This document shows positions 8,714 through 29,289 of a stretch of 43,950 bases of DNA, one piece after another; the stretch's first letter is position 1, and every line of letters begins with the position of its first letter. The stretch comes from a virus. Taxonomy: Duplodnaviria > Heunggongvirae > Uroviricota > Caudoviricetes. The notes under the pieces are model-generated. The model did no database searches and was not told the DNA's origin. It was given only the letters and a program-made list of their open reading frames with translations. The stretch is from the IMG/VR virus record IMGVR_UViG_2778261535_000013, positions 1 to 43,950 of that record, one strand, 5' to 3'. The position numbers were made by a program, and so were the translations under genes.

Positions 8714-9450
8714 TTAAAGCGAGCGGATGCCCACGCTGACCAGATGTTCAGACAGATCCGGCTCCGGTTCACCACCATTGACCAGCATCCGGCTCATTGC
8801 TGTAAACATCGCAACAGGGCCGTCGATTTTGGCTTCCGGCGTGGATTTATTCGGGAAGATGTTGTCGTTTTTGTCCGGTTTTACCGTAACGTTAGACATC
8901 ATCCAGTTCATGACCGGATGATTGCTGTGATGGAAACGCCCGGCATAGACCAGTGATTCCGTTTCCTTCATGGCCTCTGACAGATTGCGAACCGTCTGCG
9001 GAACCTCCACCAGCGGTATCCCTTCTTCAGCCAGTGCCAGGCTGAACTGCATCGCGCTCCACGGGTCAAATCCCAGTTCCCTGAGGTTTTCACCACCAAT
9101 CCATTCCAGTAAGTCACTTTTTATCTGAGCATGATCGATAACATCACCATCCGTCAGAATCAGCTTATCCATCTCCGCCCACTTCCGGTAAAGTTCTGCC
9201 TGCTGCCGCGAGCATCGTTCCAGCCGTCCTTCCGGAAGCCAGAATTTAAAATCGGCATGAACATGCCCGTTATCCGTTCGCCAGAGTTTTGCCGCCGCAC
9301 AGATATCAATCTTATGAGCAAGGTCAACGCCGACCCACATGGGATACGTTTTCAGCTCATGTCGTGGGGCAATGTATTCGCACTTCTCCCACTTAATCAT
9401 GTCCATCCAGGCAGACTCTGCTGTTACCCACACATTCATGTGTTTGGTAA
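8714..9450 (-). pseudogene. terL: terminase large subunit, C-terminal (nuclease-domain) fragment of an interrupted gene
   Basis: 241 aa ORF begins …TKHMNVWVTAESAWMDM…; the frame is open upstream only to the insertion junction at 9450; it continues the N-terminal fragment at 24089-25116 when the insert is removed. Confidence 0.8.
9444..9450. repeat. att core copy (TTGGTAA) at left junction of the inserted element
   Basis: identical 7-mer at 24089-24095; joining left flank plus core plus right flank restores the terL reading frame. Confidence 0.6.
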
Positions 9451-9525
9451 GAATATTTCAAGTTTTTTAAAATCACCTGTATATCAATCGTTTAACATGA
9501 AAAAACAGTCTTTATAAATCATCAA

Positions 9526-9546
9526 GCAATACACAGCGCAATACAC
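9526..9546. repeat. GCAATACACAGCGCAATACAC, candidate integrase arm-type site (left arm)
   Basis: near-identical 21-mer (one mismatch) at 23938-23958 just inside the opposite end of the element. Confidence 0.4.
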
Positions 9547-9731
9547 GTATCTGTATTGTTTTAATGCTGATACACACCGTTTTTTGATACAGTGATTCGA
9601 CCTACCATCGCGAAGAATTTTTTATTTCTTGTGTGTAACAATCTGACGAGGTGAGCACTCAAAGAGATAAGAGGCAGTAGAAATTTCGATCCCCCCTGAA
9701 TGCAATTTTTCGTATATATATACAAAACAGC

Positions 9732-9885
9732 GCGGGTTATGCGGGTTAGCGGGTTATCTTCGCGTGCTAAGCATTTTTTACTCTTTAATATCAATAAGTT
9801 AAAAAAACAACGTATTTAAATATCAGCCAGAATATAACCCGCAAGACATTCAAAATAACCCGCAAACACCCCTCAAATAACCCGC
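9732..9885. repeat. iteron cluster A: three tandem GCGGGTTA(T/G) copies, an AT-rich spacer, and three inverted ATAACCCGC copies
   Basis: direct reading of the sequence; the same 9-mer recurs at 17572-17694. Confidence 0.55.
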
Positions 9886-9966
9886 AAAAACATCCCTGAA
9901 AGTGGGCGCTGGTAATACTGAAAATTTATTCCATTAAATGAGCATTGTCCTCTCTCATCCATTCCG

Positions 9967-11628
9967 TTACACACCATCAAACGCCGCAAGCCGCTCTTTG
10001 TGGCTGTCGCTCATATCGAATGCAAATTCCTCATGCTCTGCCTGGAATGTGCCAAACGCCATCAGCGCCGCAACGCTCGGGTCTATCTTGTTGGATGATT
10101 TTTTCTTGTTCGGCTTGATATTGGCGTTCGCGTCACTCTGCATCACAACATTACTCATTGACCAGGCCAACACCGGATCACCACGATGCACAATCACCTT
10201 CCGGTTAACAAAAACTTCGAACGATTTCGCCGCCGGACTGAAACGAAGATATGTTTGCGGGAACGGCTCCACCTCAAATCCTGCTCCCTGTAGCTGCGTC
10301 CTCAGGTGCGTGGCGTTCCATGTATCGAAGCCCACCAGCCTGATATTGAAATTCTCTGCATCCGCCATGATGTCATCACGGATACGGTCATAATCAATGC
10401 AGTCACCCGGTGTTGTGCGTATCCAGCCCGCCTTTACCCACTGGCGATAGATGGCGCGGTTTTTATTGGCGGGATTCTGTAGCTGAAATTCCGGCAGATA
10501 GTGACGGGAAACCAGCATAATCTTTTTACCGACCGGGAAGGCATAGCACACGCTGGAAATATCGCTGGTTGATGATAAGTCCAGCCCCGCGTAGCACTCC
10601 TGCCCGTATAAATCCGCCTCCGCGAACGTTCCGGCACACTCCGCCCATGCACCGTTACCCATCCACGGCGTAGCCCCCTGACACCAGATATTGAATCGCT
10701 TGGTGAGCATTTCCACCCACTGCGACGGAATACCCCGCGCTTTCTGGATGGTTGAGGCCAGTTTTTCACGATCGACGGAAACATCGATATTGGGATTCGC
10801 CTTTATCCACATCGCCGGATCGTCAACCTCGCTTTCATCATCCAGCTCGTAAATCAGCACGAACATGGATTCGTTCACCTCTTCACCATCCAGTATCTGG
10901 CAGCAATAGTCGTAGTGTTGTTTACAGGCTGAAACAACGTTGCTCCCCGATGTGGTGATGGCAAATAATACCCCCTCTGGACGCGCCCCCATTCCCAGTT
11001 CAAGCGCGGAATAAACCCCGTTGTCAGGGTGCAGGTGATATTCATCCACAATGGCAAGACTCGGGTTTTTCCCCTCAATGGTTGCCGCTTTTGCTGCCAG
11101 TGGCGTTAACAGGCTGTTGGTTTTCGGGTGTATCACCTTGTGCGCCTGAATATTTACCCGCTTTCGTAACGGTCGGGATAAAAGGCACATCTGACGCGCA
11201 TCATCAAACACGATCCGCGCCTGATCACGACTCACGGCGGCGGTGTAAATATCCTGCTGCCCGTTTTCCATAACCAGAAACCAGTTAGCTAGGATAGCGG
11301 CGACCGTGGATTTGGCATTTTTTCGCGGTACTTCAATGAATGCGCTGGTGTATTTGCGCCGTCCGGTGGCCTTAACCTTAAAGCCCAGGATGCAGGAAAA
11401 GGCGAACTGCTGCCACGGCTCCAGTTCAATGGGGCTACCGCGCATTGCGCCTTTTACGTGCGGACACACCCTGGAAAAGGCAATAAACCGCTCCACGACC
11501 TCCTGATCGAACGTGTAAAGGGGGTTTTCGAGGTCAGAAAAATATCGTTTAACGGCCTGTTTCAGTCGTTTACAGGCCGTAATTTTGCCGTTTTTTACGC
11601 CTTCTGCGTACTCATGCCAGGCGGTCAA
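9967..11628 (-). CDS. terminase large subunit (element-encoded)
   Basis: 553 aa with ATPase-like N-terminal and nuclease-like C-terminal regions; translationally coupled to the upstream TerS. Confidence 0.9.
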   Translation of the reverse strand: MTAWHEYAEGVKNGKITACKRLKQAVKRYFSDLENPLYTFDQEVVERFIAFSRVCPHVKGAMRGSPIELEPWQQFAFSCILGFKVKATGRRKYTSAFIEVPRKNAKSTVAAILANWFLVMENGQQDIYTAAVSRDQARIVFDDARQMCLLSRPLRKRVNIQAHKVIHPKTNSLLTPLAAKAATIEGKNPSLAIVDEYHLHPDNGVYSALELGMGARPEGVLFAITTSGSNVVSACKQHYDYCCQILDGEEVNESMFVLIYELDDESEVDDPAMWIKANPNIDVSVDREKLASTIQKARGIPSQWVEMLTKRFNIWCQGATPWMGNGAWAECAGTFAEADLYGQECYAGLDLSSTSDISSVCYAFPVGKKIMLVSRHYLPEFQLQNPANKNRAIYRQWVKAGWIRTTPGDCIDYDRIRDDIMADAENFNIRLVGFDTWNATHLRTQLQGAGFEVEPFPQTYLRFSPAAKSFEVFVNRKVIVHRGDPVLAWSMSNVVMQSDANANIKPNKKKSSNKIDPSVAALMAFGTFQAEHEEFAFDMSDSHKERLAAFDGV

Positions 11629-11968
11629 GCTCGTCCTCCTCCTCTGTTTCCGGTGGATTTCTGCGGCGGCTTACCGGGTCAAAACCCAGCAAAGAAGCCA
11701 TTTTGATCATTATTCTTTCCGCGTCAGCCTTTGCGCTCAGGGCGGGGTTTCTGCTCTCGCTGCCCTGACTGTTAACAATGCTGAAGCCGCGCGTCGCAAG
11801 GTCTTCGACGGCTTTGCGGTATATGGAGTAGTTAACGCAATACAGTTCCAGATTGCTCCAGTCGGCGGGGGTAAGGTCTTCCCGCCCGGAAAGCTGGCGC
11901 GATTTTTCCTTCCACTGCCTGACCGCGATTTCATCCAGGTAAGCGGGGGCTTTTGGTGGTCTTGCCAT
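11612..11968 (-). CDS. terminase small subunit, P27 family
   Basis: likely start MARPPKAPAYLDE… at 11968; the ORF track extends further upstream to 12109; directly upstream of TerL. Confidence 0.7.
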   Translation of the reverse strand: MARPPKAPAYLDEIAVRQWKEKSRQLSGREDLTPADWSNLELYCVNYSIYRKAVEDLATRGFSIVNSQGSESRNPALSAKADAERIMIKMASLLGFDPVSRRRNPPETEEEDELDRLA

Positions 11969-12256
11969 GTTCTTTTTTCGCCCAATTATTTTCAAAAAAA
12001 TTCCCGTGCACAAAAATTTGAGGAGGCGGTCGGTGTCCGGCAGGGACGGTTTTGTCCTGAAAACCTCCCCCACCCCCTCTGACGGCCTCACCAGCGATTG
12101 CGAAAACATTCCATGACCTCGCGGTCACGGTCGGTTAATTGCTTCGCTGTGGTGCGTTCTGTGCGCCCTGTCCTGTTGGCTTTGTGCCCTGTCTCCTGTG
12201 TCTTCCATAAGTCACGCTGCCTTATCAGTCCACGTATCAGCCTGTTTTGCTCCTGT

Positions 12257-12697
12257 TCAGTCATCATCGCCATACATCCAGTCGTTACGGTGTGCCGCCC
12301 GTTCTTCCTGCTCGCGATACATGCCCGCCTTACGGTTCGCTTTCGTGGCTGGATCTTCCCGTGTCGTCTTACGGTTGTGGCACGTCTGGCACAATGCCTG
12401 GTGATTCCACTCAGGCCAGAAGAGAACATCACCGCCGCCATTGATGGGAATGATGTGATCCACCACAAGAGCTGGCGTATAAATCCCCTTAGCCAGACAA
12501 CGCACGCATAACGGGTTTTTGCTCAGGTACAGGGCGCGGTATTTGTCCCACTGTCGGGAATACCCGCGCGCGCGGCGGTGTCCCCGTCTGGCATCCTCTG
12601 CACGCCATGCAGCCCGCCTGTGCTCTTCACACTTTCCGGACTTCACGCGCTTATTACAGCCCGGCTCAGTGCAGCGCCTTAATGGTTGCCACGGCAT
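12257..12697 (-). CDS. HNH endonuclease (packaging-associated)
   Basis: 146 aa with Cys-rich N-terminus and VVDHIIP…H…C HNH motif; positioned next to TerS. Confidence 0.8.
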   Translation of the reverse strand: MPWQPLRRCTEPGCNKRVKSGKCEEHRRAAWRAEDARRGHRRARGYSRQWDKYRALYLSKNPLCVRCLAKGIYTPALVVDHIIPINGGGDVLFWPEWNHQALCQTCHNRKTTREDPATKANRKAGMYREQEERAAHRNDWMYGDDD

Positions 12698-12996
12698 CAG
12701 TACACCCCCACATCACGATAAACCGACCAGAGCGCAGAAATAGCCATAGGCAGTTCAGACTGCTCCACAGGTGAAACCGCTTCCCTGTTCTCGTACAGGA
12801 AAGCGATGTACATCAGGCAACCAACACGTATTGCCGGGGTAAATTCCAGCCCGTCTTCAAAACGTTTCCCGATATGCTTCTGGCAGGCTTCCAGCGCCGC
12901 ATCGGTATACATTTTCAGAAGTTCGCCTTCTCCGGAAAAGTCATCAAGGCGAAGATGTGCCCTGACTTCATCAGGTGTAATTTTGTCTTCACTCAT
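12697..12996 (-). CDS. head-tail connector (gp6-like)
   Basis: likely start MSEDKITPDEVRAHLRLDDF… at 12996; similar in pattern to the resident gp6-like protein. Confidence 0.6.
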   Translation of the reverse strand: MSEDKITPDEVRAHLRLDDFSGEGELLKMYTDAALEACQKHIGKRFEDGLEFTPAIRVGCLMYIAFLYENREAVSPVEQSELPMAISALWSVYRDVGVY

Positions 12997-14203
12997 CTTT
13001 TTCACCTTTAATTTCCACAGTCTGCTTCCATGCCTGGCTGAACTCGTCGCCACCTTCACGCGGCGGCATTCCCTCACGCTCACGGGCTTCGTTCGGATTC
13101 ATGATCCCGTTCTTAATCCCTTTCTCATACGTGGCGTAACGTTCAGTAGGTGTGGCGCGCAGTAAATCGGCTGAATCAAACTCAACCAGATAACGGGTAC
13201 CAGGTACGGGAGAAGCCACCAGCAAAGCGGCCTTGATTTGCTGTTCGAAGTTCGCCAGCCACGGACGCATTGTCATAGTCAGAAACGCGCGGCTTGCCTC
13301 ACTGAAATTGCTGTAGGTGCTGTTGCTGTATTCCTGCAGAAAAATCGGCGACACGTTGAACATCCGGGCGATGTCTTCAATGGAGAAGCGACGGGAGGCC
13401 AGCCATTCCGCATCCTGGTTACTCATCCCCAGTTGCTTGTAATCCATGCCCCCTTCAAGGATTGGCGTTTTTCCGGCATTTTTCGCCCCCTTGTAGCGTT
13501 CCAGTGCGTCTAATGCCTGTTTACCTTTCACGCCGTCCAGCCATTCGCCTGACGTGATAATCCCTGCCGCCATCATGCCATCTTTCATAATGCTGGCTCC
13601 GTGACGCTGTTGAGCAAGGCCAAGCCCCAGCGCCTCACGGCAAATCGTGATGGGGGAGCGTCCCAGAAAGCCATCATCCGAGGCATAGCGGAGATGCAGA
13701 ACTTCTTCCTGTAAATACGTGCGCACCGTTCCTGTACAGGGTTCGGTGATGGTATAGCGGTATTTGTGTGCGCCTGTGCGTTCCGGTACAACACACCCCG
13801 GCGCATAAGGATGAAGTGATTTTGGCTGACCGTCCCGCCCCCATTCAATAACCGCATAGGCGTTACCGTTCAGCAGGCAGTGACGCATCATTGTGCGTTT
13901 AAACTGGTAAGGTGTCTGGCACGAATTAGGCTGCTCATTCAGCAGAATATCTACCGGATGACTGTCCAGCCATTCCCGCGCCTCCCTGCCCTTGTCATTA
14001 CGTACCAGATACAGATAACACGGCATCGTGGCCACCGCCTCAGCGATGACGGAAACCGCGTTCATCACTGCGGGCAATGATTCAGCCGTCCCGGCAGAAA
14101 CATATTCTCCGGATCCGGTATTCGGTACGCCGGACAGCACCAGAAAATCATCAATGGACAGGTTACGTTGCTCGCTTTTTTTACGACTAAAAGGCCACCA
14201 CAT
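12989..14203 (-). CDS. portal protein, HK97 family
   Basis: likely start MWWPFSRKK… at 14203, one nucleotide after the protease stop; the ORF track extends upstream to 14422 across the protease gene. Confidence 0.8.
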   Translation of the reverse strand: MWWPFSRKKSEQRNLSIDDFLVLSGVPNTGSGEYVSAGTAESLPAVMNAVSVIAEAVATMPCYLYLVRNDKGREAREWLDSHPVDILLNEQPNSCQTPYQFKRTMMRHCLLNGNAYAVIEWGRDGQPKSLHPYAPGCVVPERTGAHKYRYTITEPCTGTVRTYLQEEVLHLRYASDDGFLGRSPITICREALGLGLAQQRHGASIMKDGMMAAGIITSGEWLDGVKGKQALDALERYKGAKNAGKTPILEGGMDYKQLGMSNQDAEWLASRRFSIEDIARMFNVSPIFLQEYSNSTYSNFSEASRAFLTMTMRPWLANFEQQIKAALLVASPVPGTRYLVEFDSADLLRATPTERYATYEKGIKNGIMNPNEAREREGMPPREGGDEFSQAWKQTVEIKGEKDE

Positions 14204-14204
14204 A

Positions 14205-14765
14205 TCACAACCCCGCCAGCTCTGCCCAGCGATGACGATTATTTCCTGCCGGGCGTAATTCAGGGTGCTGTGCAAACAACGAACGGTGGGCAATCTCCAC
14301 GCCAGATTCGGGATAAGCAGGCATCGACGTGATCGTGATTTCCCTGAGTTCTGCAGCGGTAACAGTACGCAGATACGGTTTTTGCGCGATATTCCACTCT
14401 TCGCATAATGCGCGAAAGCCAAAGCTCATCCCTGTAATGTCGCCACGCTCCACCAGCGTAAGCACATCTTTTCCAAGCTGGGTATCAGGCGGTGTCAGTT
14501 CAAAACGTAGCCCGGTGTTGTCCTCAGTCAGTACCAGAGTGCCGGATTTGGTGCGCCCCAGCAGTTGGGTATAGTCATGCTCATACAGGCAGCGCACATC
14601 ATTACCCGCCGCCAGATAGTCAGCAAAAGCCCCCGGCGTGAACTGTTCGCGGAATTCGTCCCAGATAATTTCTGAAAGGCTGTTCCAGCGAACGGCATAC
14701 CCCACCAGCTTTTTATTGCTGGCGGTCAGTTCAGATGTGCGGATTTCAAAATCGGTGTTTTTCAT
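14205..14765 (-). CDS. prohead protease, HK97 family
   Basis: 186 aa; sequence pattern of HK97 prohead proteases; lies between capsid and portal genes. Confidence 0.85.
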   Translation of the reverse strand: MKNTDFEIRTSELTASNKKLVGYAVRWNSLSEIIWDEFREQFTPGAFADYLAAGNDVRCLYEHDYTQLLGRTKSGTLVLTEDNTGLRFELTPPDTQLGKDVLTLVERGDITGMSFGFRALCEEWNIAQKPYLRTVTAAELREITITSMPAYPESGVEIAHRSLFAQHPELRPAGNNRHRWAELAGL

Positions 14766-14819
14766 CGGTGTACTCCATAAAGCTGAAAAAGGAGGCCGCA
14801 GCCTCCTCCTTACTCATGA

Positions 14820-15989
14820 CTAGCCAGCTTTCATTTCCAGAATTTTGATGGCGTTTGAATCCACCACACCACCGCCCAGATATTTATCCGTGTGGACCTT
14901 GTAGAATCCGGGTTCAGTAATGTTGTCCGGTCGGGTGCGAATCCCTGTTACATGATCAACGATGAAATAACCACGACTGAAATCGCCAACCGCTAGCGGT
15001 GCTTTTCCTGCGCCGATGTCCGGCATGGACTCCAGGCAGAAAACAGGACGACCAAGCAACATATCCGGCGCACCTTCTTTAAGGCTGTCGCGCCAGATAT
15101 AATCGCCATTCTCATTTTTCAGCTTCTGTAGTGTCCCTGCCGTGCCCGAGTTCATCACCCAGACGGCATTTTTGCGGTATTTCGCTTTCAGCTTGTAGAG
15201 AATGTCGATCAGTTCGTCCGCTGTAATGGCGGTTCCACTTGCCGCTACCACTTTTTCAATGGTGCCAAAAGCGCGGGTTTTGTCACTGGTCGCCGCACGG
15301 GTGTAAGCCATGAAGCCTTTCGGCTTGCCGTTACCGTCGCCATTAACAAAATCATCCTCTTCGGTGCTGGCGAACGTGTCGGCAATTTCGGAGGATAACC
15401 AGCCCAAAATATCCACCTCTGAAAAATCCAGGATTTCCTGCGTGGTTTTCGGGTAGGCGTAGATCTGATTCAGCTTGATGGTTACACGTTCAATTTTCGG
15501 GGTGTTGGTTTCACTACGTGCGCTGCCTTCTGTGCCTCGTCCTACAGTTGCGCCGCCAGTGGAAACCAGTTTCTGAAACTCATTTGATTTTGCGGTCTTC
15601 ACGGTCGCGATCACGCGCATAACACTGTCATCCTGTAGCTGGCGCATGACTTCGCGATCAAGCTCAGGAATTACGGTATATCCGCCATCCCTGCCGCTGT
15701 CAGTGCTGGTGGACAGTGATCGCACATCTCCGGTTACGATGTAGTTACGCAATTCATCAGATGATAATTTCTGGATGCCCGTTCCTGGCTTGCTGCGTTC
15801 TTCATCAGCCACAGACTCGAGGCGGTAAATTTCTGTGTCGAGGGAATCGGCTTTTGCACGCAGTTCATCAAACTGTTTGCCCTCGTCATCGTTCAGGCTG
15901 CGGTTTTCACTGTCGGCTTTTTCCAGCAGGGATCGCATCTGGTTTTTCAGGGCGGTTTTTTGCTGGCGGAGTTCGATTAATTTCTTCAT
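14820..15989 (-). CDS. major capsid protein, HK97 family
   Basis: 389 aa; N-terminal coiled-coil region then capsid-fold sequence closely paralleling the resident capsid protein (…GDGNGKPKGF…). Confidence 0.9.
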   Translation of the reverse strand: MKKLIELRQQKTALKNQMRSLLEKADSENRSLNDDEGKQFDELRAKADSLDTEIYRLESVADEERSKPGTGIQKLSSDELRNYIVTGDVRSLSTSTDSGRDGGYTVIPELDREVMRQLQDDSVMRVIATVKTAKSNEFQKLVSTGGATVGRGTEGSARSETNTPKIERVTIKLNQIYAYPKTTQEILDFSEVDILGWLSSEIADTFASTEEDDFVNGDGNGKPKGFMAYTRAATSDKTRAFGTIEKVVAASGTAITADELIDILYKLKAKYRKNAVWVMNSGTAGTLQKLKNENGDYIWRDSLKEGAPDMLLGRPVFCLESMPDIGAGKAPLAVGDFSRGYFIVDHVTGIRTRPDNITEPGFYKVHTDKYLGGGVVDSNAIKILEMKAG

Positions 15990-16226
15990 GAAGGTTTTCT
16001 CGTATTGGTTAAGATTCAGGACGTGAAACCAACACGGAGGGAGCGCCGCCCGACACTCTCGGCATCTCGCAGATCAACCCGGCATCGCGCAGGGGGTCAG
16101 GCGGCATTGTGGCGGCTCACGTCTGAGTGCCACACGCCAACATATACATAAAAATCAGTATGTAAACATCAGCCAGAATCACCGAACAACCTGGAACAAC
16201 CACGAACAAATAATTTACAAAACCTG

Positions 16227-16255
16227 AAAAAAAGACCTGGAGAAAATCCAGGCCT
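16227..16255 (-). terminator. intrinsic terminator after the replication/accessory operon
   Basis: minus-strand stem CCTGGA/TCCAGG with loop, followed by TTTTTTT. Confidence 0.5.
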
Positions 16256-16263
16256 TTATCGCT

Positions 16264-16512
16264 TTATTGTTTCACTGGATCCCGCATTCTGCGTCTTATT
16301 TTCCACAGATATTCGATCATCGCTTCCACCTGCTCACGATTGGTTGCGAAAATTTCCCCGGTCAGTGAGCTGCGCAGAAAATCATGATGATCCACAACAA
16401 ACAACGCATCGGAAGAAAGCAGACGGCGATATTTTTTTGCTGTCGTGGTTTCCAGATCATCAAAACCATGAAACTTTTTATGTTGCTGGACTTCTTCAAA
16501 TGTCACTGGCAT
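16264..16512 (-). CDS. hypothetical protein
   Basis: 82 aa ORF overlapping the ProQ/FinO-like gene stop; no motif. Confidence 0.35.
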   Translation of the reverse strand: MPVTFEEVQQHKKFHGFDDLETTTAKKYRRLLSSDALFVVDHHDFLRSSLTGEIFATNREQVEAMIEYLWKIRRRMRDPVKQ

Positions 16513-17045
16513 GTATCCCCCTTTGCTGCCCGGCGCTGGCGCTTGTGCTTCTCATTCAGCGCCATCAGCCGCGTTTCTGCCTCCTGCTGTTCCTGTGGTG
16601 TCACTTCCCCACATGGCTGGCCTTTCAGGTCGTATCGTACCCCACCAGCAACCAGGGCGCGGTAATAGCGCGGAGACTGCGCATAAGATGCCAGCGTCGC
16701 ACGTAATGCCCCCGGCCCGAATGCCAGCCCCCTGACGGCGAGATCCTGCATCAGGTCGTCGAATATCCCCACCTTAAGCGGCTTCGGTGCTTCCCTGTTG
16801 AATAAGTCAGGCCACATCTCAGTGAGGCGGTTAACGCGCCTGCGGTTTTTGCGCTGGCGTTTGGTCATATGCCGCCACGGTGTCACCCCTGTGGGCTGCC
16901 CTTTGCGGCTCTGCTGTGCGTTCTGATTGCCGGGTATCACTTTATGCGCCGATGTGGTTTTATCCCGCTCTTGCGCCGCCTGCGTCGTTTTCTGCGGCGT
17001 GCCGTAAATGCCTTTCGGTTTTCGGTTAATGGTCAGCTTTGTCAT
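16503..17045 (-). CDS. ProQ/FinO-domain RNA-binding protein
   Basis: C-terminal region …WPDLFNREAPKPLKVGIFDDLMQDL…YAQSPRYYRAL…RYDLKGQPCGEVTPQE… aligns by eye with the ProQ N-terminal FinO domain; basic N-terminus. Confidence 0.7.
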   Translation of the reverse strand: MTKLTINRKPKGIYGTPQKTTQAAQERDKTTSAHKVIPGNQNAQQSRKGQPTGVTPWRHMTKRQRKNRRRVNRLTEMWPDLFNREAPKPLKVGIFDDLMQDLAVRGLAFGPGALRATLASYAQSPRYYRALVAGGVRYDLKGQPCGEVTPQEQQEAETRLMALNEKHKRQRRAAKGDTCQ

Positions 17046-17081
17046 GCCTTCCCCTGTAATTACTCTGTTCGCTGTTGTGAA

Positions 17082-17507
17082 TTAAAACTGTATGTTATCC
17101 CCGTACAGGTCATCGTGCTGGCCTGTCTGTTGTTTTGCCCTGTTCAGTGCGTCAGTGGCCTGCCCCTGTTGGCCTTTTTTGCCGCCCGGTCGCGCCGTTC
17201 TCGCACTGATTACGCTGTCTGCGATGACCTGCCAGCCCTGCCGCGTTTCGCCGTTCTGCCCTGTCCACTGGCTTACCTGCATGTTACCCGCCACGTTCAC
17301 CAGTTCGCCTTTGCGGTGTTTTGCCAGTGCGTCGGCCTGTCTGCCAAACGCCAGGACGGATAACCACATCGTCGCCGTTCCGTCATCTGCCTGGCTGCAT
17401 GGCAGGGGAACCGCCATACTCGCCATCGCCATTTGTGTTCCCTTGCTGGTGGTCTTTAACTGCGGGTCAGCCACCAGCCGCCCGTAAGCCGCTATCTGTG
17501 CTGTCAT
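17082..17507 (-). CDS. ssb: single-stranded DNA-binding protein
   Basis: 141 aa; N-terminal OB-fold-like sequence, Gly/Gln-rich linker and acidic C-terminal tail DDLYGDNIQF. Confidence 0.7.
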   Translation of the reverse strand: MTAQIAAYGRLVADPQLKTTSKGTQMAMASMAVPLPCSQADDGTATMWLSVLAFGRQADALAKHRKGELVNVAGNMQVSQWTGQNGETRQGWQVIADSVISARTARPGGKKGQQGQATDALNRAKQQTGQHDDLYGDNIQF

Positions 17508-17571
17508 GCTGTCTGCTCTCCGGTTTTAACGTTGATGGTTACGCTTGTTTACACCCTTACGGTGAAATTCT

Positions 17572-17694
17572 GCGGGTTATAATCGCACTTTTGCGGGTTA
17601 TAACTGCCGTTTTGCGGGTTACGTGCGGGTTATTGATTTCCTTTTTATTCATACAGTTAATGCACTTATATACATGATAACCCGCATAACCCGC
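17572..17694. repeat. iteron cluster B: four GCGGGTTA(T/C) copies, an AT-rich spacer, and two inverted ATAACCCGC copies; candidate origin
   Basis: direct reading; lies immediately downstream of the replication gene. Confidence 0.6.
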
Positions 17695-17717
17695 AACTTT
17701 TCACCTCACACAGGGGG

Positions 17718-19841
17718 TTAATCTTCTGCCTCAGGCTGGAACATCAGCACGTAAAAAACATGCTGCTTCCCCCCAATTTTGCCGAGCGCCTTTTTCTTGT
17801 AACGGCGATCGTTACCCGCTTCCAGCATTCCGGCAGCACTCAACGCGCGGGCAAAGTGAGACGGATTAAATCCCTGTGCTATCTCACCCTCAAATACATG
17901 CGGGAACGTGTAAAAACGGAACTCGTCATCTTCGTTTCTGATACTCCCCTTTCTGTATCCGGCAAGTTCTTTAATCGGTAAATCACGCTCGTCGGTATTG
18001 GGCCACGGAAGGTATCTGCTGAATCCGAACGACGCTAAAAAAGCTTCTGCCTGTTCAACCATCTGTTTAAATTCCCTGTTACCCGTGCCGAACTCCTTCA
18101 CCCAGGCATTAAAATTATGCTGTATGGCATCGCGGCATTCCTGCTCATCCCAGCCAGTAACATGACCTGAAAGCACAAGCGCGGCCTCCAGTATGGCAAA
18201 TCGCTCCCCCACACGGTGAACCTGTTCGCCGTAGCTCTCCGGTATCAGGTTGCGCCACCGCTCACGGCATGTCCTTACCGTGTCCTTTGCCTCCTGCTGG
18301 TGTTCTGCCAGCCATTTAACCCACTCACGACCCGCCGCCCCGTGATTTTCTGTCCAGGCATCCTTTAACGCGTCTGCGTGCGCCTTTCCGGTGCTGTATT
18401 CGTGAAATTGCGTGGCTTTTTCCATCGGAACGTTAAGCAGGCGGACAAGCTGCCCCGCTTTGACTTTTATCCCCTCCGTTTTGAGGAATGTCTCAACGTC
18501 CATTTCTCCGGTGCTGATTGCCACCGTGCGCCAGTGTTTGATCTCCCTGTTGCCGCCGTCCTTCGCCCCCTGTAATTTCCCCGAACCGTTAAACAGCGTA
18601 TAGGCTGACGTGGACACCTCCCGCGCGTTTCCGGCCTGGCCTATTTCATCCAGGGGTAAAAGCCCGTCATTGTGTGCCTCTGCTTCGTTGGCGATACCTA
18701 ACGCTGTGCCGTACCAGGTCAGCCGCTGCGCGTCCGGCTCTCCCCATAAACTTGATGCGATGTTCTGTGTGGTGGTTTTCCCTGCCGATGACTGTTCGAA
18801 AAGATGTACCCCGAAGCCGTCAGCGCCCACCAGCCCGATTAATGGTGCGGATAACGATACCGCCACACCCAGCATCATGGACGGATTACCACCAGCCAGC
18901 CGCGCAACGGTATCGCGCCAGCCCTCCGCCGTTCCTGCCACGGAATAGCCATTAACAGCAGCCGTTTTTCCGGTAAACAGGACTGGCTTTTCGCAATCAC
19001 CAATGACCGAACCGTCCGGCATGATGTACGCGCCAAAATGCCAGCCCGTTGTTGTGCTTAACTGCCATTCCTCATGGCTTCCGCTTAACTGCATCCAGTC
19101 AGCCAGGATAGCCCTGTATTTACCGTTGGTTGTTACGTTCAGTCCGTGGTCTTTCAGCAACCGCCAGCCGTCACGGTCGCCAATGCCACCGCACGGAACC
19201 GCCATTGTGATGACTTCATGGTTTGCTAATTTTTTCCAGCGCATCACGCGGTAATGCTCTTTACCGATTGTCCCCGTTCCCAGTAGTTCAAGCGGGGAAC
19301 ATAACCACGTCTCAGGCCGGATAATTTCGCCTGACTGCTTATCCACTTTTGGCGTTACCCAGAAAACACCATCGGCGCGACTTTCAACGCGGGGCTTTAA
19401 TTCATCATCGCCCTGGATTTCTGTGATTTTTTTCTTTAAGGGCAACACCAGACTTTCCCCGCGCTCGTATTCGTCTTTGAGGCGAGGCAACTGGTCGGAT
19501 AAATCCGCCGGGCTGATGTCAGTTATCCCCGCGTATTCGTATACGGTCTTCACGCCAGCCACAGCCAGCAACGTGACGATCTGTGTAAGGCTACGTTCAG
19601 TGATGTGCCCTGCGCGGTAAACACGCACACACTGACGGCTATCATCAATAATTTGATAACCGGTAATATCTTTCAGGTGTTCATCTGACAGAACGACAGG
19701 CGGCACATTGTCGGCGGCAATATGCTTACCTGCCCATTCCTGCCACTCTTTCGCATGGCTCCACGCATCACTACCCGCAAAGATGATAACCTCCGTCATT
19801 TTGTCGGCTGGCTGGTGCTTTAAGTTTGGTGCGCGCTTCAT
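17718..19841 (-). CDS. replication protein, primase-helicase-like, with Walker A motif
   Basis: 707 aa; GxxxxGKT (…EQSSAGKTTT…); size and position beside the iterons match PICI/P4-type replication proteins. Confidence 0.65.
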   Translation of the reverse strand: MKRAPNLKHQPADKMTEVIIFAGSDAWSHAKEWQEWAGKHIAADNVPPVVLSDEHLKDITGYQIIDDSRQCVRVYRAGHITERSLTQIVTLLAVAGVKTVYEYAGITDISPADLSDQLPRLKDEYERGESLVLPLKKKITEIQGDDELKPRVESRADGVFWVTPKVDKQSGEIIRPETWLCSPLELLGTGTIGKEHYRVMRWKKLANHEVITMAVPCGGIGDRDGWRLLKDHGLNVTTNGKYRAILADWMQLSGSHEEWQLSTTTGWHFGAYIMPDGSVIGDCEKPVLFTGKTAAVNGYSVAGTAEGWRDTVARLAGGNPSMMLGVAVSLSAPLIGLVGADGFGVHLFEQSSAGKTTTQNIASSLWGEPDAQRLTWYGTALGIANEAEAHNDGLLPLDEIGQAGNAREVSTSAYTLFNGSGKLQGAKDGGNREIKHWRTVAISTGEMDVETFLKTEGIKVKAGQLVRLLNVPMEKATQFHEYSTGKAHADALKDAWTENHGAAGREWVKWLAEHQQEAKDTVRTCRERWRNLIPESYGEQVHRVGERFAILEAALVLSGHVTGWDEQECRDAIQHNFNAWVKEFGTGNREFKQMVEQAEAFLASFGFSRYLPWPNTDERDLPIKELAGYRKGSIRNEDDEFRFYTFPHVFEGEIAQGFNPSHFARALSAAGMLEAGNDRRYKKKALGKIGGKQHVFYVLMFQPEAED

Positions 19842-20152
19842 TTTGCCTTTCCCCGTTCACGAATAATTTCACGTACTGCCTTAATGCGTTCCATTCCTGT
19901 AACGCGCATGATTCTGTCGATGTCGCTTAATTCTGCTGGTGGTGCTTTACTTACCAAGGTGAACTCCCTGTCAAAGCGCATATGTGACGACACGCAGGGA
20001 TGCGCATAACCTTCGCGGATATAGGTCACACGAAAATCATCGACGGTTTTGATCGTTATCGTGCTGCCGTATTTATCCTGGAAAATATCGCCGGGGCGGA
20101 TTTCAGGCCGAGCGGGGCCGCTGGCAGTAAAGCCAGAATTTTTCTTTTTCAT
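19838..20152 (-). CDS. hypothetical protein
   Basis: 104 aa ORF, stop overlaps the replication gene start. Confidence 0.4.
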   Translation of the reverse strand: MKKKNSGFTASGPARPEIRPGDIFQDKYGSTITIKTVDDFRVTYIREGYAHPCVSSHMRFDREFTLVSKAPPAELSDIDRIMRVTGMERIKAVREIIRERGKAK

Positions 20153-20157
20153 GTTTT

Positions 20158-20406
20158 TTACTCCAGAGGCAGCTTTTTAGCGGCGAGCTCAATATCAGAT
20201 GTCAGAGAAACCTGTGTATTTGCCAGGTCTAACAACAAAGAAATAAGAATTTCTTCTCTGCTATCGGATTTATCGGTGCTAAGGCTGTTCATCCACATAT
20301 TGACGACTTCCCTGATTTTTTTCGCAGAGTGCAGGGCTTCAAATGCCAGGTCTTCAATATCATGTTTATTTCGCATAATCGCCCCCGCCATTTTCACAAT
20401 CAGCAA
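20158..20406 (-). CDS. hypothetical protein
   Basis: 82 aa ORF; true start uncertain. Confidence 0.35.
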   Translation of the reverse strand: MLIVKMAGAIMRNKHDIEDLAFEALHSAKKIREVVNMWMNSLSTDKSDSREEILISLLLDLANTQVSLTSDIELAAKKLPLE

Positions 20407-20611
20407 TCAGGATGGCTTTTGCCTCATTCAGCGCCGTATCAGCACTAAATTGCATGACAGCCAGTGAGTGAGGAACGAAAGCCCCGGCATATTCTGTTTC
20501 GCTGGTGGCGTGCTTATGCGCCTTGTCTGCGATAACAGAAATATCAATCAGCGCGTGCATCAGCGTTCTGATGGCTTCGGCGGCTGCGTCCGGACGGGTG
20601 TTATTACACAT
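20366..20611 (-). CDS. hypothetical protein
   Basis: 81 aa ORF; its ATG overlaps the stop of the upstream 67-aa ORF (ATGTGTAA) with AGGAGG RBS. Confidence 0.4.
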   Translation of the reverse strand: MCNNTRPDAAAEAIRTLMHALIDISVIADKAHKHATSETEYAGAFVPHSLAVMQFSADTALNEAKAILIADCENGGGDYAK

Positions 20612-20807
20612 GGCGTACCTCCTGACGAATACGGGCAGTAAATACCATCACGCAGCCGGCCGGGGATTGCTGGCGGGCTTCCTGTTCGCTGGTGGCCTCA
20701 ATGGTAATCACGCGCGGCTTAGCCGTGCTCAGGGCGATAAAACGCCAGATGTATTTATTCAGGTTGTGCGAGTCCCGCCCTTTCGGGTGTGTGGTATGAT
20801 TTAACAT
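20604..20807 (-). CDS. hypothetical small protein (67 aa), first gene of the leftward operon
   Basis: ATG at 20807 with RBS; corresponds to the C-terminal 67 codons of a long low-complexity ORF-track entry that is otherwise implausible. Confidence 0.4.
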   Translation of the reverse strand: MLNHTTHPKGRDSHNLNKYIWRFIALSTAKPRVITIEATSEQEARQQSPAGCVMVFTARIRQEVRHV

Positions 20808-20904
20808 AGCTACCTCGATACTTTCGCTATCGTTGGTGGTTAGAAGCCCCGTTACTGCTCCAACAGTGCGGGGTTTCGTCGTTTCTGCACCTTGCATAAA
20901 CAAG

Positions 20905-20985
20905 GTGTAAGACACAATGTAAAGCAGCAGTGTCTTACACGTCAATCCTTCAAAATAATTTTTTTTCGTGTATATTGTCTTACAC
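20905..20985. promoter_or_regulatory. divergent promoter region with three copies of operator GTGTAAGACAC / GTGTCTTACAC
   Basis: inverted pair at 20905-20915 and 20930-20940, third copy at 20976-20985 overlapping a TATATT -10-like hexamer about 30 nt upstream of the RHH gene. Confidence 0.5.
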
Positions 20986-21006
20986 CAAAAACATAAGGAG
21001 TTAGAC

Positions 21007-21186
21007 ATGGCAACAGGTCCAAAGAATGCAAAATCACAATCTGTAACTGCACGTATTGCCCATGAAATTATTGAAGGCATGGAAAAAGTGAAAGAAGAAG
21101 GCGAAAGTACAGGGCAGTTTATAAGCGCAGCCATGCGTGGCGAGATCAAACGCCGCCAGCGCCGCAAGGCCAAAGAGCAGGAGTAA
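21007..21186 (+). CDS. small ribbon-helix-helix-like regulator
   Basis: 59 aa from ATG 21007 (MATGPKNAKSQSVTARIAHEIIEGMEK…) with GGAG RBS; sequence pattern compatible with RHH/CopG-type DNA-binding proteins. Confidence 0.45.
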   Translation: MATGPKNAKSQSVTARIAHEIIEGMEKVKEEGESTGQFISAAMRGEIKRRQRRKAKEQE

Positions 21187-21243
21187 CCATCACCAGCGCC
21201 GTGGTGAGAGTAACTACGGCGCATTGCTATGCAGGTGCTTACC

Positions 21244-21423
21244 ATGAACGATAAAGAGTTAAAAAAAACACCACCACAAACACGGAAAGGACAGCGCAAA
21301 AAGATAGCGCATGAGCATGAATCAGAAAGATTCGCCCCCTGTGCGTTTGCTCTTGAGAAATTCCTTAAGGAGCACAAGAAAAAGCTATCATTGCAAACCT
21401 GGGAACGAACCGAATCTGACTGA
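21244..21423 (+). CDS. hypothetical small basic protein
   Basis: 59 aa from MNDKELKK… downstream of the RHH gene; no motif. Confidence 0.3.
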   Translation: MNDKELKKTPPQTRKGQRKKIAHEHESERFAPCAFALEKFLKEHKKKLSLQTWERTESD

Positions 21424-21516
21424 TCAAATTGCCCACCAGCCAGCAAATCGCTATGATGTTCGGGCTTATGTTTAGTGTTTTCCCATTGGCGACCGCCCCC
21501 GGTCGCCTTTGTTTTG

Positions 21517-22095
21517 TCACTGAATGCAGTTGTCAAAGTAAAACTCAGGCTGATATTCACGTATCAGCCTTTTTTCTTCTTCCTCCAGTTCACGCTTTTT
21601 GCGCTTACAGGCCTGTAGCTCCCTCCCCTTCTCACTGGCACTTATTTGATATTGCTCTTTACGGCGGGAAAAATCCTGCAATGCGCCCCACGGGATACCA
21701 TAAGCCCCTGTCTTTCTGATACCTGGTATCACATTCCTGAATACCCAGTTACTGAAACGATGAGCAAATGTGCCAGGCGTCGTTGCTTTGCGGCTGCGGG
21801 CTATTAGTTTGTAGAAACCTGACTCAGAGATAATGCTCATATTCTGATTTCCTCCGGGGGTGTAAGTTAAATTTACTCCCTTTTCATCATCATCAAGCAT
21901 CTGCAACGCCGTACGCGAATTGGTCAGTTCCAGCGCAGCGCAAACATCCTTTGCAACAAACCACGGATCGCCGTTCAGATACACCACGCGAACGTTCACA
22001 CCATCAAAGCGCAGAACGACCAGATCACGAATATCACAGAATTTTTTCACATGACGTGCGTCACCCTTGCCCGTCACGGCAATATTTTTATTCAT
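21517..22095 (-). CDS. Bro-N domain protein (antirepressor-like)
   Basis: …GDPWFVAKDVCAALELTNSRTALQMLDDDEK… matches the conserved Bro-N core. Confidence 0.7.
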   Translation of the reverse strand: MNKNIAVTGKGDARHVKKFCDIRDLVVLRFDGVNVRVVYLNGDPWFVAKDVCAALELTNSRTALQMLDDDEKGVNLTYTPGGNQNMSIISESGFYKLIARSRKATTPGTFAHRFSNWVFRNVIPGIRKTGAYGIPWGALQDFSRRKEQYQISASEKGRELQACKRKKRELEEEEKRLIREYQPEFYFDNCIQ

Positions 22096-22152
22096 CGCTT
22101 TCTACCTCACATACAAAAAACCCCGCATTGCGTGGTGCGGGGTTGTCGGTAA

Positions 22153-22431
22153 TTACTTATTGGCGTTTTTGTATGGGCTGTTTACTTCCTTTACTCCTGG
22201 CGGATGCATAACCCACCAGAGCACATCAGAGAGCAACCAGGAAACAGACACTTTCCCTAAATGAGCACGAGCAGGAAATGCTCCCTCCTGTTCAAGTACC
22301 CAACGTCTGCTTCTTGAAAGCCCGGTACGATTGGCACACTCATGTTCGCGTATACGGCGATCATACGGTTCGCCATGCTCTTTCAGAATCTGAATGCGTT
22401 CTTCGGGTGTAGGATAAATAAATTTTTGCAT
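22153..22431 (-). CDS. AlpA-family regulator (excisionase-like)
   Basis: likely start MQKFIYPTPEE… at 22431; …TGLSRSRRWVLEQEGAFPARAHLGKVSVSWLLSDV… matches the AlpA HTH pattern. Confidence 0.65.
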   Translation of the reverse strand: MQKFIYPTPEERIQILKEHGEPYDRRIREHECANRTGLSRSRRWVLEQEGAFPARAHLGKVSVSWLLSDVLWWVMHPPGVKEVNSPYKNANK

Positions 22432-22494
22432 AAAAATATCACCTATAAAAAAACCCGCCAAAAGACGGGTTGATTATATCTCATTTAATTTAGC

Positions 22495-22728
22495 TCAGGG
22501 TTTCCATTCACCCTTTACCCATTCCAGCACCTCAGATAAGCGCCAGACTTTTGTTTGTGGGCCAATACATATTTTTCGTGGAAATTTTCCTTCCTTTTCA
22601 AGTAACGATCTGTGTCTCCTGCCAAGAGCAGTTAACCATGCACATTCATCTTCCTTAATCATCCTGTCGATTGTTTTATCATTTTCAAGTTCTTCACGCG
22701 TAACTATTTGAATCATTACCATCACCAC
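22495..22728 (-). CDS. AlpA-family regulator (second copy)
   Basis: …LLEKEGKFPRKICIGPQTKVWRLSEVLEWV… matches the AlpA pattern; immediately downstream of the integrase gene. Confidence 0.6.
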   Translation of the reverse strand: MVMVMIQIVTREELENDKTIDRMIKEDECAWLTALGRRHRSLLEKEGKFPRKICIGPQTKVWRLSEVLEWVKGEWKP

Positions 22729-23917
22729 TAATTAGCTTATTCAGGTAGTCGTACCACCAGTTCATAGCTTCTTTTTTTCTGTCCATATACTGGCTTCTGT
22801 TATAAACCCCGGCAACACCGCCTAATGTGTGCCCAAGCAACTGTTCAACCACATTATGTTCAAAACCATGATCACTTAGCTTTGTGGCAAACACTCTTCG
22901 CATATCATGCGCCGTCCATTTCTCCGAGTGTTTCATCCTTTTCCATGTCTTACCGATAGTTACGCTTGCCGTACACTGACGCATATCAAACCCAATCACA
23001 TTTTCTTTGTTACCTGTTATTTTTTTTAACGTAACTAACCAGTTAAACATGCCATCAGGAATCGGTCTGATTATTTCCCTGCCATTTTTGCTATGATCAG
23101 CGGGAACGCGCCATAATTTCTTATCAAAATCCCACTCTCCCCAGGAGGACAGTAATACTTCTGACAGTCGGCAACCAAAAACTACCAGGAAACGTAAAAT
23201 AATTCGGTTTTCATATGATAATTCGTGATTGTCATAATCAGTATTAATACTTCGCCATAAATCTCTGATTTCATCATCTGTTAAAACCCTGCTTCTTCGC
23301 GCAGACTTTTTTCCCACATCACAGACCTCAAGATCATCAATTTCATGACTAATCGCGTATTTTCTTACCCGACAAAATTTAAGCGCCTGTTTTGATATAC
23401 GCAATAAAGCTCCGGCCTGTACAGGTGCTACTTTTTTTATTTTGTCAAAGCACTTGATCCACATAGATATTGAGCAATCACTAAGTGGTACATGACCAAT
23501 CACCGGATAAATATGTTTACCAAAGCACTGCCTGATATGTTCTGCTCCCCTACGCTTATCCATTGCATAATTATCAAGCCAGTATTCAAGCGCCTCACGA
23601 ACGGTAACAGGTTGCAAGGTGGCTTCCCGTTCAATTTTTATCTGAATCCGTGGATCTCTGCCCTCCGCAAGCCAGGTTCGACACTGATCGCGCATCTCTC
23701 TCGCTGATTTGAGACTCAGATCAGGATATTTTCCAAGTGTCAGCCAGATGGGCGCGGTTCCCCTTCCCGCCAGTCTGTAAAAGAAAACAAAACTAACACA
23801 TCCGTATTTACTGACCCGTACCGAAAGCCCGTTACCATCAGCGATGGTTTCCTGCCTCTCACTCCTGCGCCCAAGCAGGGAACGAAGTTTTTTATCGCTC
23901 AGTTTGTTTAGCGCCAT
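22694..23917 (-). CDS. int: tyrosine integrase, P4-type
   Basis: likely start MALNKLSDKKLRSLLG… at 23917; C-terminal catalytic region …HDMRRVFATKL…LLGHT…YNRSQY; adjacent to the right junction. Confidence 0.9.
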   Translation of the reverse strand: MALNKLSDKKLRSLLGRRSERQETIADGNGLSVRVSKYGCVSFVFFYRLAGRGTAPIWLTLGKYPDLSLKSAREMRDQCRTWLAEGRDPRIQIKIEREATLQPVTVREALEYWLDNYAMDKRRGAEHIRQCFGKHIYPVIGHVPLSDCSISMWIKCFDKIKKVAPVQAGALLRISKQALKFCRVRKYAISHEIDDLEVCDVGKKSARRSRVLTDDEIRDLWRSINTDYDNHELSYENRIILRFLVVFGCRLSEVLLSSWGEWDFDKKLWRVPADHSKNGREIIRPIPDGMFNWLVTLKKITGNKENVIGFDMRQCTASVTIGKTWKRMKHSEKWTAHDMRRVFATKLSDHGFEHNVVEQLLGHTLGGVAGVYNRSQYMDRKKEAMNWWYDYLNKLISGDGNDSNSYA

Positions 23918-23937
23918 GTGATTTATAACCCGTTTTT

Positions 23938-23958
23938 GCAATACACAGTGCAATACAC
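23938..23958. repeat. GCAATACACAGTGCAATACAC, candidate integrase arm-type site (right arm)
   Basis: matches 9526-9546 with one mismatch; 20-40 nt upstream of the int start codon. Confidence 0.4.
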
Positions 23959-24088
23959 AAATGATGAAAACAGCCAGAACCTTCCAGAAAAAACAAAAAC
24001 GACGAACAAGAAAAAATCTTTTTCTTTCATTTGGTTACTAAAAAAATCAGGACAGGCCGCACTGTTGTTACGGCGTGATGTTACGTTC

Positions 24089-24095
24089 TTGGTAA
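24089..24095. repeat. att core copy (TTGGTAA) at right junction of the inserted element
   Basis: identical to 9444-9450. Confidence 0.6.
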
Positions 24096-28354: not shown

Positions 28355-28379
28355 ATACAAAAAGCTCGCCGAAGCGAGC
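28355..28379 (-). terminator. intrinsic terminator downstream of tRNA-like gene 1
   Basis: minus-strand stem GCTCGC/GCGAGC with loop TTCG, followed by TTTTTGT. Confidence 0.45.
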
Positions 28380-28407
28380 CTGTTAAAAGTATATTTACCG
28401 TTACAAA

Positions 28408-29135: not shown

Positions 29136-29210
<75 letters not shown>

Positions 29211-29213
29211 ATA

Positions 29214-29289
<76 letters not shown>

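Follow-up and report, generated by a model that had tools for sequence, protein, structure and literature searches.

What divides the large-terminase gene (terL) of the prophage carried in the 43,950-nucleotide viral stretch analysed here (the window), and what does the division mean for that prophage? An earlier note on this DNA had proposed that terL is split cleanly by an integrase-bearing element, that the same 7-mer stands at both junctions with a P4-type integrase just inside the right one, that the two flanking ORFs are the C-terminal domain of a terminase and an N-terminal domain with an unrelated tail, and that these rejoin into one continuous in-frame protein; it named as checks the contiguity of the separate fragments and the presence of uninterrupted terL genes in relatives. 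The structure of the locus bears out each of these points. The sequence TTGGTAA (ttaccaa on the coding strand) is present at both element ends, as the attL core (9444-9450) and the attR core (24089-24095), giving an inserted element of 14,645 bp when one copy of the core is counted (9444/9451-24088/24095) and a body of 14,638 bp (9451-24088, minus strand). The 3' part of the helper terL (8714-9450, minus strand) encodes the C-terminal nuclease domain and ends at the attL core; its 241-aa ORF (8714-9439, minus strand) matches positions 64-283 of Pfam TerL_nuclease (E=1e-36), and RefSeq names the equivalent of 8714-9450 in E. coli EC416, the nearest complete genome, 'terminase TerL endonuclease subunit, missing N-terminus'. 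The 5' part reads through attR as a 397-aa ORF (23923-25116, minus strand), in which TerL_ATPase is followed by part of the first 65 profile positions of TerL_nuclease (2-65) and then by 54 unrelated codons. As the TerL_nuclease positions are 64-283 in one fragment and 2-65 in the other, the fragments are contiguous and do not overlap. Rejoined, 8714-9450 and 24096-25116 form a single open frame of 585 aa (...NFFTKHMNVW...) without stop or frameshift, the junction reading ...AATTTTTTTACCAAACACATG....

The 7-mer is short, and TTGGTAA occurs 11 times over both strands of the window; as it is not significant alone, the junctions were defined by comparison with the empty site. The 600-nt empty site rebuilt in silico aligns gap-free and at 100% identity with intact genes annotated 'terminase large subunit'; among 5,426 complete E. 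coli genomes, about 905 have it in one piece (at least 80% of its 600 nt). In genomes with an uninterrupted terL the match to the attR region of the window begins exactly at 24089 (query position 390). The brevity of the repeat might suggest that the insertion is not real, and that a chance 7-bp repeat or an assembly chimera is being read as one. Against this, the junction between int and terL is present in 36 independent complete E. coli genomes and that between terL and the element in 34, and 226 blocks of a public assembly index contain the 397-aa junction ORF in its exact form. This recurrence excludes an assembly artefact and, with the identical empty site, makes either version of such an error vanishingly improbable. 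The locus is a clean insertion of a 14.6 kb satellite into terL of a resident E. coli prophage.

The earlier note could find no place for such a site in described att-site repertoires, but here it was mistaken, as arrangement, site and element type were described in 2023 under the name helper-embedded PICI (HE-PICI) and are real but not new. Tommasini, Mageeney & Williams (2023; PMC10111431; NAR Genom Bioinform 5:lqad036) describe HE-PICIs at 14 prophage late-gene sites, one of which, 'A:Terminase_1:246', has the att identity 'ttaccaa', the very core seen at attL, and accounts for roughly 60 catalogued elements (PMC10111431). Their table lists Eco33.15.A_Terminase_1_246 (FN554766.1/2250958-2235714, core ttaccaa) in E. 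coli 042, and the matches of the window element in NC_017626.1 lie in that same place. It also lists Eco6845.15.A_Terminase_1_246 (NMHT01000062.1/24093-9449), which, compared by table entry, coincides with the window element in length (14,645 bp), strand and contig coordinates. Embedding of this kind has been taken up elsewhere: a 2025 preprint from the field of capsid-forming PICIs (cf-PICIs) names late genes of prophages as integration sites of PICIs and cf-PICIs, and de Sousa et al. (2023) cite a preprint on satellites inside prophages.

The integrase of the window element is 99.0% identical over 407 residues to that of Eco33.15.A_Terminase_1_246, an identity to a listed member that would place it in the HE-PICI clade and in the subclade of this site. 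HE-PICI attP sites carry two co-oriented copies of a doubled motif, tgTGTATTGCantgTGTATTGCa, one 81 +/- 2 bp to the upstream side of the centre and the other 132 +/- 2 bp to the downstream side (PMC10111431). Counting from core position 9445/24090, the window has one copy (TGTATTGCGCTGTGTATTGC, 9526-9545, minus strand, 1 mismatch) at a distance of about 81 bp and another (TGTATTGCACTGTGTATTGC, 23938-23957, minus strand, 0 mismatches) at about 133 bp, a short way upstream of the int ATG; these are the only 2 matches in the window, where 0.01 would be expected by chance. The insertion point falls at TerL_nuclease profile position 64-65, which together with the 178 positions of TerL_ATPase gives about 243 and so agrees approximately with position 246 of the old Pfam Terminase_1 profile, if the numbering converts as we infer. 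As in the published elements, a prophage late gene is interrupted, the attP brings no replacement sequence, and int, alpA, the primase gene and the interrupted terL are co-oriented, all on the minus strand. The element is thus almost certainly a HE-PICI, a satellite of P4/PICI type whose integrase would recombine attP with the 7-bp core ttaccaa in the nuclease-domain coding part of terL. We found no evidence contradicting this classification.

The satellite is laid out in the four ordered zones of HE-PICIs, Integration, Bro, Replication and Late, reading int, two AlpA genes, Bro-N, Icd-like/DUF4222/DUF927/SSB and then capsid through TerL, and the genes given with coordinates below all lie on the minus strand. 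The integration zone comprises the tyrosine integrase with its P4-type arm domain (22694-23917; Arm-DNA-bind_3 and Phage_integrase), an AlpA excisionase/regulator that overlaps the int end (22495-22728; Pfam Phage_AlpA, E=2e-9) and a second AlpA-family HTH gene (22153-22461; Phage_AlpA, E=7e-10). The Bro zone encodes a Bro-N protein (21517-22095; Pfam Bro-N and PHROG anti-repressor families), and the replication zone a DUF927 primase/helicase-type protein (17718-19841; E=6e-46) and an SSB (17082-17507; Pfam SSB). A ProQ/FinO-family accessory gene (16503-17045; Pfam ProQ) separates these from the late genes, which encode a major capsid protein of the HK97 fold family (14820-15989; Pfam Phage_capsid, E=8e-72), an HK97-type prohead protease (14205-14765; Peptidase_S78, E=5e-46), a portal (12989-14203; Pfam Phage_portal, E=5e-93, and RefSeq), a head-tail connector (12697-12996), an HNH endonuclease as packaging accessory (12257-12697; Pfam HNH and RefSeq annotation), a TerS of the P27/Terminase_4 family (11612-11968; RefSeq annotation and Pfam) and a 553-aa TerL (9967-11628; TerL_ATPase and TerL_nuclease). 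Only one connector gene is recognised, from its RefSeq annotation and a weak match to Pfam Phage_connect_1 whose 20.0 bits are just below the curated cut-off of 21.2. A 318-aa ORF at 20604-21560 was rejected as a gene, for only its last ~90 residues match a family (Icd-like/PHROG 6196) and it also contains a plus-strand YlcI/YnfO gene. The TerL proteins of satellite and helper share only 31% identity, and the satellite head and packaging proteins as a set are just 19-41% identical to their helper counterparts. At the place homologous to the TTACCAA of the helper gene the satellite terL reads TCACCAA, and with different flanks there as well, integration of the satellite into its own terL is unlikely.

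The series capsid, protease, portal, connector, hnh, terS and terL is the gene set of the proteobacterial cf-PICIs in the order given for them, and the length of 14,645 bp lies within their range of about 10-18 kb. The 26 ORFs scanned against Pfam or PHROGs include no tail or lysis genes, and neither do the 23 genes that RefSeq annotates in the near-identical copy of EC416, leaving aside the transposase of its IS1414. On gene content the element thus also fits the cf-PICI description, with its complete head and packaging set, and should depend on the helper for no more than tails, lysis and induction signals, in line with the suggestion in the earlier note of a satellite that takes tails. An integrase beside a complete HK97-type module for head and terminase might in principle belong to a small complete temperate phage nested in the first. 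Such a phage would need more than 14.6 kb that lack tail, lysis and CI/Cro-type immunity genes, and the inward-facing int followed by AlpA, with the Bro zone and DUF927 primase, follows the four-zone PICI layout by which satellites are told apart from prophages, where int would face outward and lack AlpA, so that a nested prophage is very improbable.

The helper of this satellite is an HK97-like lambdoid prophage between potB and potC; a listed helper, 'Eco1645.57.potB', is likewise at potB (PMC10111431). Directly upstream of the split terL in its late operon are the genes for the helper TerS (25116-25598, minus strand) and, upstream of that, the helper HNH (25747-26097, minus strand). The left end of the helper, with the tail fibres, lies beyond the window. 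What the insertion does to this phage depends on whether the split is final. The earlier note had held that packaging by the resident phage would be inactivated, and terL is indeed split; a permanent knock-out does not follow. Neither scar nor replacement sequence is present at the split, so excision should restore terL exactly, and the disruption is probably reversible in this way, as has been demonstrated only for another HE-PICI, 11capE, whose excision was observed. The effect on the helper is likely to be delayed terL expression rather than its permanent loss.

The split terL would be simply a dead gene if the helper were defective and both partners immobile, stranded together in a decaying composite. 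Many HE-PICI helpers look truncated (Tommasini et al., PMC10111431), and in EC416 the helper has pseudogenes in place of its genes for the side tail fibre and for tail fibre assembly, as well as a frameshift in cro, and an IS1414 is inserted in the satellite copy; from the side tail fibre pseudogenes in particular, the helper of the window may be defective too and its satellite stranded. The window itself argues otherwise, as every satellite gene tested matches Pfam over its full length, the two att cores and the two arm motifs are intact, the terL halves rejoin without interruption, and the head, tail-shaft, lysis and terS/HNH genes of the helper are all open. Moreover, the same junction recurs in many strains whose helpers differ in their lysis modules and occupy two chromosomal sites, potB and zinT|mtfA, which argues for ongoing mobility. 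We therefore regard stranding as unlikely, though much less so than a nested prophage.

For a mobile HE-PICI in this position a life cycle can be proposed that is likely as a whole. SOS induction would derepress the helper, and the 57-kb composite would excise and replicate. Late transcription of the helper genes HNH, terS and the 5' part of terL (terL') would then continue straight into the co-oriented int and alpA, because the terL' ORF stops only 5 nt upstream of the int ATG. Satellite excision would follow and, with nothing lost at the 7-bp core, would restore terL exactly, while the satellite would replicate from its own primase and origin and, with its own terminase, fill small capsids that it also encodes itself, to be joined to helper tails. 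Helper packaging would be held back until the satellite had excised. Copies with one extra T, such as that of E. coli 042, would give an in-frame 807-aa TerL'-Int fusion. We raise tentatively, as a refinement of the known system that the gene arrangement allows but that we consider rather doubtful, that the combination of a capsid-forming satellite with insertion in the helper terL is a specific timing device. Late read-through into int, by translational coupling or as a TerL'-Int fusion, would confine satellite excision to the late phase and block helper packaging until then; if this is true, satellite proheads and terminase would gain a head start on the tail pool.

Embedding in a late gene creates cis-regulatory links to the helper, through passive replication, read-through of late transcripts and the timing of helper gene repair, and ties the spread of the satellite to the presence of the prophage. 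The window adds no new kind of element, and offers a clean, apparently intact example of the terL site group, usable for tests of excision timing and tail piracy.

The listed element Eco33.15 of E. coli 042 shares with it target gene, codon, 7-bp core, orientation to terL and arm motifs, and is 97% identical across 87% of the window element, with the core identical and the flanks near-identical. The two differ in the accessory slot, which holds ProQ/FinO in the window and a PerC-family regulator in 042, in part of the Bro/Icd region, and in the site of the helper, which is potB in the window and zinT|mtfA in 042. In E. coli O169:H41 2014EL-1345-2 the same cf-PICI backbone occupies the chromosomal yifB (comM-like) gene, with ~12 kb (9677-21516 in the window, terL through the Icd/YlcI region) 95% identical and in the same gene order; only the integration module differs, and with this other integrase/AlpA module and a chromosomal target the yifB element is a conventional trans-acting satellite. 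The main text of the cf-PICI preprint (10.1101/2022.09.08.507074) gives six attB sites for E. coli, all of them chromosomal, and no prophage terL site. The cf-PICI prototype EcCIEDL933 (Alqurainy et al. 2023), likened here by its description, has a similar PICI-type int/alpA/primase front end and head and packaging genes in the same order, and the cf-PICIs resemble the window element in lacking tail and lysis genes, in their size of 10-18 kb and in the low identity of their proteins to phage homologues; that the window element forms capsids and pirates tails is a prediction from its genes. What P4-like satellites have in common with it is limited to the type of integrase and an Icd-like gene: the Psu, Delta and Sid hijacking families are absent from its Pfam and PHROG matches, and the CI/seqA (C4, isrK) immunity RNA gave no Rfam match at E<=0.1 within 9000-24500.

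The only HE-PICI studied experimentally is Eco567.11capE of E. coli NRG857c (PMC10111431), which, once the composite is induced, excises after excision and replication of the latter, as followed by qPCR and deep sequencing, and from which virions were not recovered (PMC10111431). It resembles the window element in an integrase assigned to the same clade (PMC10111431), in its co-oriented position inside a helper late gene and in an attP without replacement sequence. Its 11 kb are inserted, however, in capsid gene E (site E:Phage_cap_E:80) with a 10-bp identity block, and it has no terS and presumably relies on the cos packaging of its helper, whereas the window element has its own TerS, TerL and HNH.

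The terL gene of the resident prophage is split by an element whose att cores, TTGGTAA, lie at 9444-9450 and 24089-24095. The C-terminal part is a 241-aa ORF (8714-9439, minus strand) matching Pfam TerL_nuclease positions 64-283, and the N-terminal part a 397-aa ORF (23923-25116, minus strand) matching TerL_ATPase, then TerL_nuclease positions 2-65, followed by 54 codons without relation to terminase. Given these Pfam ranges the two are adjacent, non-overlapping pieces of one protein, confirming the clean split proposed in the earlier note, and the 7-mer it placed at both junctions is present, though by itself little proof: counting its complement, it has 11 occurrences across the window. Rejoined in silico, 8714-9450 and 24096-25116 form a single 585-aa open frame reading N-F-F-T-K-H-M-N-V-W at the joint, as had been claimed for a continuous terminase of about 580 aa. 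Intact relatives reading through the reconstructed junction were looked for and found, the 600-nt in-silico empty site being 100% identical, without gaps, to 'terminase large subunit' genes in many complete E. coli genomes. Essentially the whole empty site is present in 905 of 5,426 such genomes, and in these similarity to the right junction of the window starts exactly at 24089. Occupied junctions recur in complete genomes (int|terL, n=36; terL|element, n=34) from pigs, cattle, poultry, humans and water, and the exact 397-aa junction ORF is recorded in 226 blocks of a public assembly index. The empty-site identity and this recurrence rule out an artefact; the insertion in terL is real, and the structural interpretation first given to it is correct.

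The element measures 14,645 bp with one core copy counted, and all its genes are on the minus strand. From attR to attL it comprises a tyrosine integrase whose arm domain is of P4 type (22694-23917), in line with the P4-type integrase noticed earlier just inside the right junction, two AlpA-family genes, a Bro-N protein, an Icd-like gene, a DUF4222 protein, a DUF927 primase/helicase-type protein and SSB, then a ProQ/FinO-family accessory gene (16503-17045) in the slot that separates the replication zone from the late zone, and finally, in this order toward attL, the major capsid protein, prohead protease, portal, head-tail connector, HNH endonuclease, TerS (P27 family) and TerL. Annotation and Pfam/PHROG matches reveal no tail, lysis or CI/Cro genes in the element, and the layout is that of a four-zone gram-negative PICI. 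Family by family, its head and packaging proteins correspond to those of the helper, the surrounding prophage, yet identity between the two is only 19-41%; judged by sequence, the satellite genes are a separate parallel set, not a recent copy of the helper's. Where the satellite terL is homologous to the target, it reads TCACCAA between differing flanks, and self-insertion is therefore unlikely. Of a mechanically called 318-aa ORF (20604-21560, minus strand), only the final ~90 residues have database matches (Icd-like / PHROG 6196 'transcriptional repressor'); its N-terminal part, within which a plus-strand YlcI/YnfO gene lies (21007-21186), is probably non-coding. Terminator-like hairpins with a T-run (22452-22471 and 22119-22144, minus strand), one behind each AlpA-family gene and ahead of Bro-N, are reminiscent of P4-type termination-controlled early transcription; no Rfam match to a C4/isrK RNA was found at E<=0.1 across 9000-24500.

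The helper, an HK97-like lambdoid prophage, carries from right to left an integrase, excisionase, exonuclease and dicB/ydf region, the replication and Q region with a tRNA cluster, holins and an M15 endolysin, HNH, terS and the split terL, and then portal, protease, capsid, connectors and tail shaft genes, the window ending in a partial tape-measure gene. The nearest complete genome, E. coli EC416, is 99.97% identical across the left 21 kb of the window, and here the prophage is sited between potB and potC. The EC416 helper has a frameshifted cro, and the IS1414 (IS256-like) of its satellite lies between the YlcI/YnfO gene and Bro-N (EC416 region L001, 26897-28208), is absent from the window copy (~21340), and interrupts a satellite otherwise near-identical to the window's. 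ARAGORN predicts five helper tRNAs (Val, Gly, Thr, Lys and Met; 28408-29445, minus strand) in the stretch from the Q region to the lysis genes; for the equivalent stretch of EC416 the annotation lists just tRNA-Arg and tRNA-Ile, window ~27470-29290 has no match to EC416, and this part of the helper is mosaic. One related helper (L010; GCA_946404235.1 CAMJCY010000004.1), whose terL'-int junction is identical to the window's, carries a gene for the heat-labile enterotoxin LT-IIB immediately upstream of the lysis genes (1-29).

The earlier note could not place integration into a helper packaging gene in described att-site repertoires, but class, site and core sequence are already catalogued. Tommasini, Mageeney and Williams (NAR Genom Bioinform 2023, PMC10111431) described helper-embedded PICIs (HE-PICIs) as 491 satellites of one integrase clade at 14 sites across nine prophage late genes, co-oriented with the interrupted gene and with an attP lacking replacement sequence. 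The terL gene accounts for two of these sites, one of which, A:Terminase_1:246 (245 in the main text), has the att identity block 'ttaccaa' (Supplementary File 1), the reverse complement of the window core. Their Eco33.15.A_Terminase_1_246 in E. coli 042 (FN554766.1/2250958-2235714) is the locus of the window's matches in NC_017626.1, with a 99.0% identical integrase and the same cores and junction flanks. Their Eco6845.15.A_Terminase_1_246 (NMHT01000062.1/24093-9449) equals the window element in length (14,645 bp), strand and, within the 7-bp core ambiguity, coordinates; the window is therefore very probably contig NMHT01000062.1, and this very locus very probably catalogued too. Under the same gene profile the table also places a helper prophage, Eco1645.57.potB, at potB, in agreement with the chromosomal site found here. 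The doubled motif tgTGTATTGCantgTGTATTGCa, reported as specific to HE-PICI attP at 81 ± 2 bp upstream and 132 ± 2 bp downstream of the centre (PMC10111431), has exactly two matches in the window, against 0.01 expected by chance, at 9526-9545 and 23938-23957 (both minus strand), ~81 and ~133 bp from the core. At the sequence level, every defining HE-PICI feature testable here is found.

The int, alpA and remaining satellite genes are co-directional with the helper late operon. The attR-int spacer (within 23915-24030, minus strand) contains a T6 run, and terL', the N-terminal fragment reading into the element, therefore stops (TAA 23923-23925) 5 nt ahead of the int ATG (23917). In E. coli 042 (copy L004, 16270-16470) the run is T7 and terL' is in frame with int, which makes a single 807-aa ORF, TerL(1-345)-linker-Int, that may yield a fusion protein and is flagged just as 'reannotate term_int fusion' by Tommasini et al. 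(PMC10111431). In 11capE, a related element in a capsid gene and the one HE-PICI studied by experiment, mitomycin C caused the whole composite to excise and replicate, with satellite excision later (PMC10111431). We suggest that helper late transcription would read through terS-terL' into int-alpA, leading to late satellite excision, and that helper packaging would be held back until then. The insertion deprives the helper TerL of its nuclease domain; in place of the proposed inactivation of packaging, however, a temporary rather than lasting block is expected, as terL would come back without a scar once the satellite excises at the 7-bp core. The excised satellite would replicate, its own capsids would be filled by its own TerS/TerL/HNH, and these would take helper tails. 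The particular composite in the window may nevertheless be stranded: the helper left end lies outside the window, the EC416 satellite bears an IS1414 insertion, and the EC416 helper, whose genes for the side tail fibre and for tail fibre assembly carry the annotation of truncated pseudogenes (EC416 region L003, 9347-11945), may be defective. However, all that is visible in the window is intact.

Among helpers that share the window's junction ORF exactly, the lysis module upstream comes in several versions and the chromosomal site in at least two (potB and zinT|mtfA), which argues for continued mobility. The complete late zone of the element conforms to the description of capsid-forming PICIs (cf-PICIs), with the same order capsid-protease-portal-connector-hnh-terS-terL, and a link between prophage-embedded satellites and cf-PICIs is already in print. 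The accessory slot varies, the E. coli 042 copy encoding a PerC-family transcriptional regulator (L004 8866-9162) where the window has the ProQ/FinO-family gene. About 12 kb of the satellite backbone (window 9677-21516) is present at 95% identity in chromosomal yifB of other E. coli strains, e.g. O169:H41 (L015; NZ_CP024223.1 2340610-2355520), whereas the integrase and AlpA module of these copies is different. As the same backbone stands behind different modules, the integration module appears to be an exchangeable cassette that sets the helper-embedded or conventional state of the same cf-PICI body.
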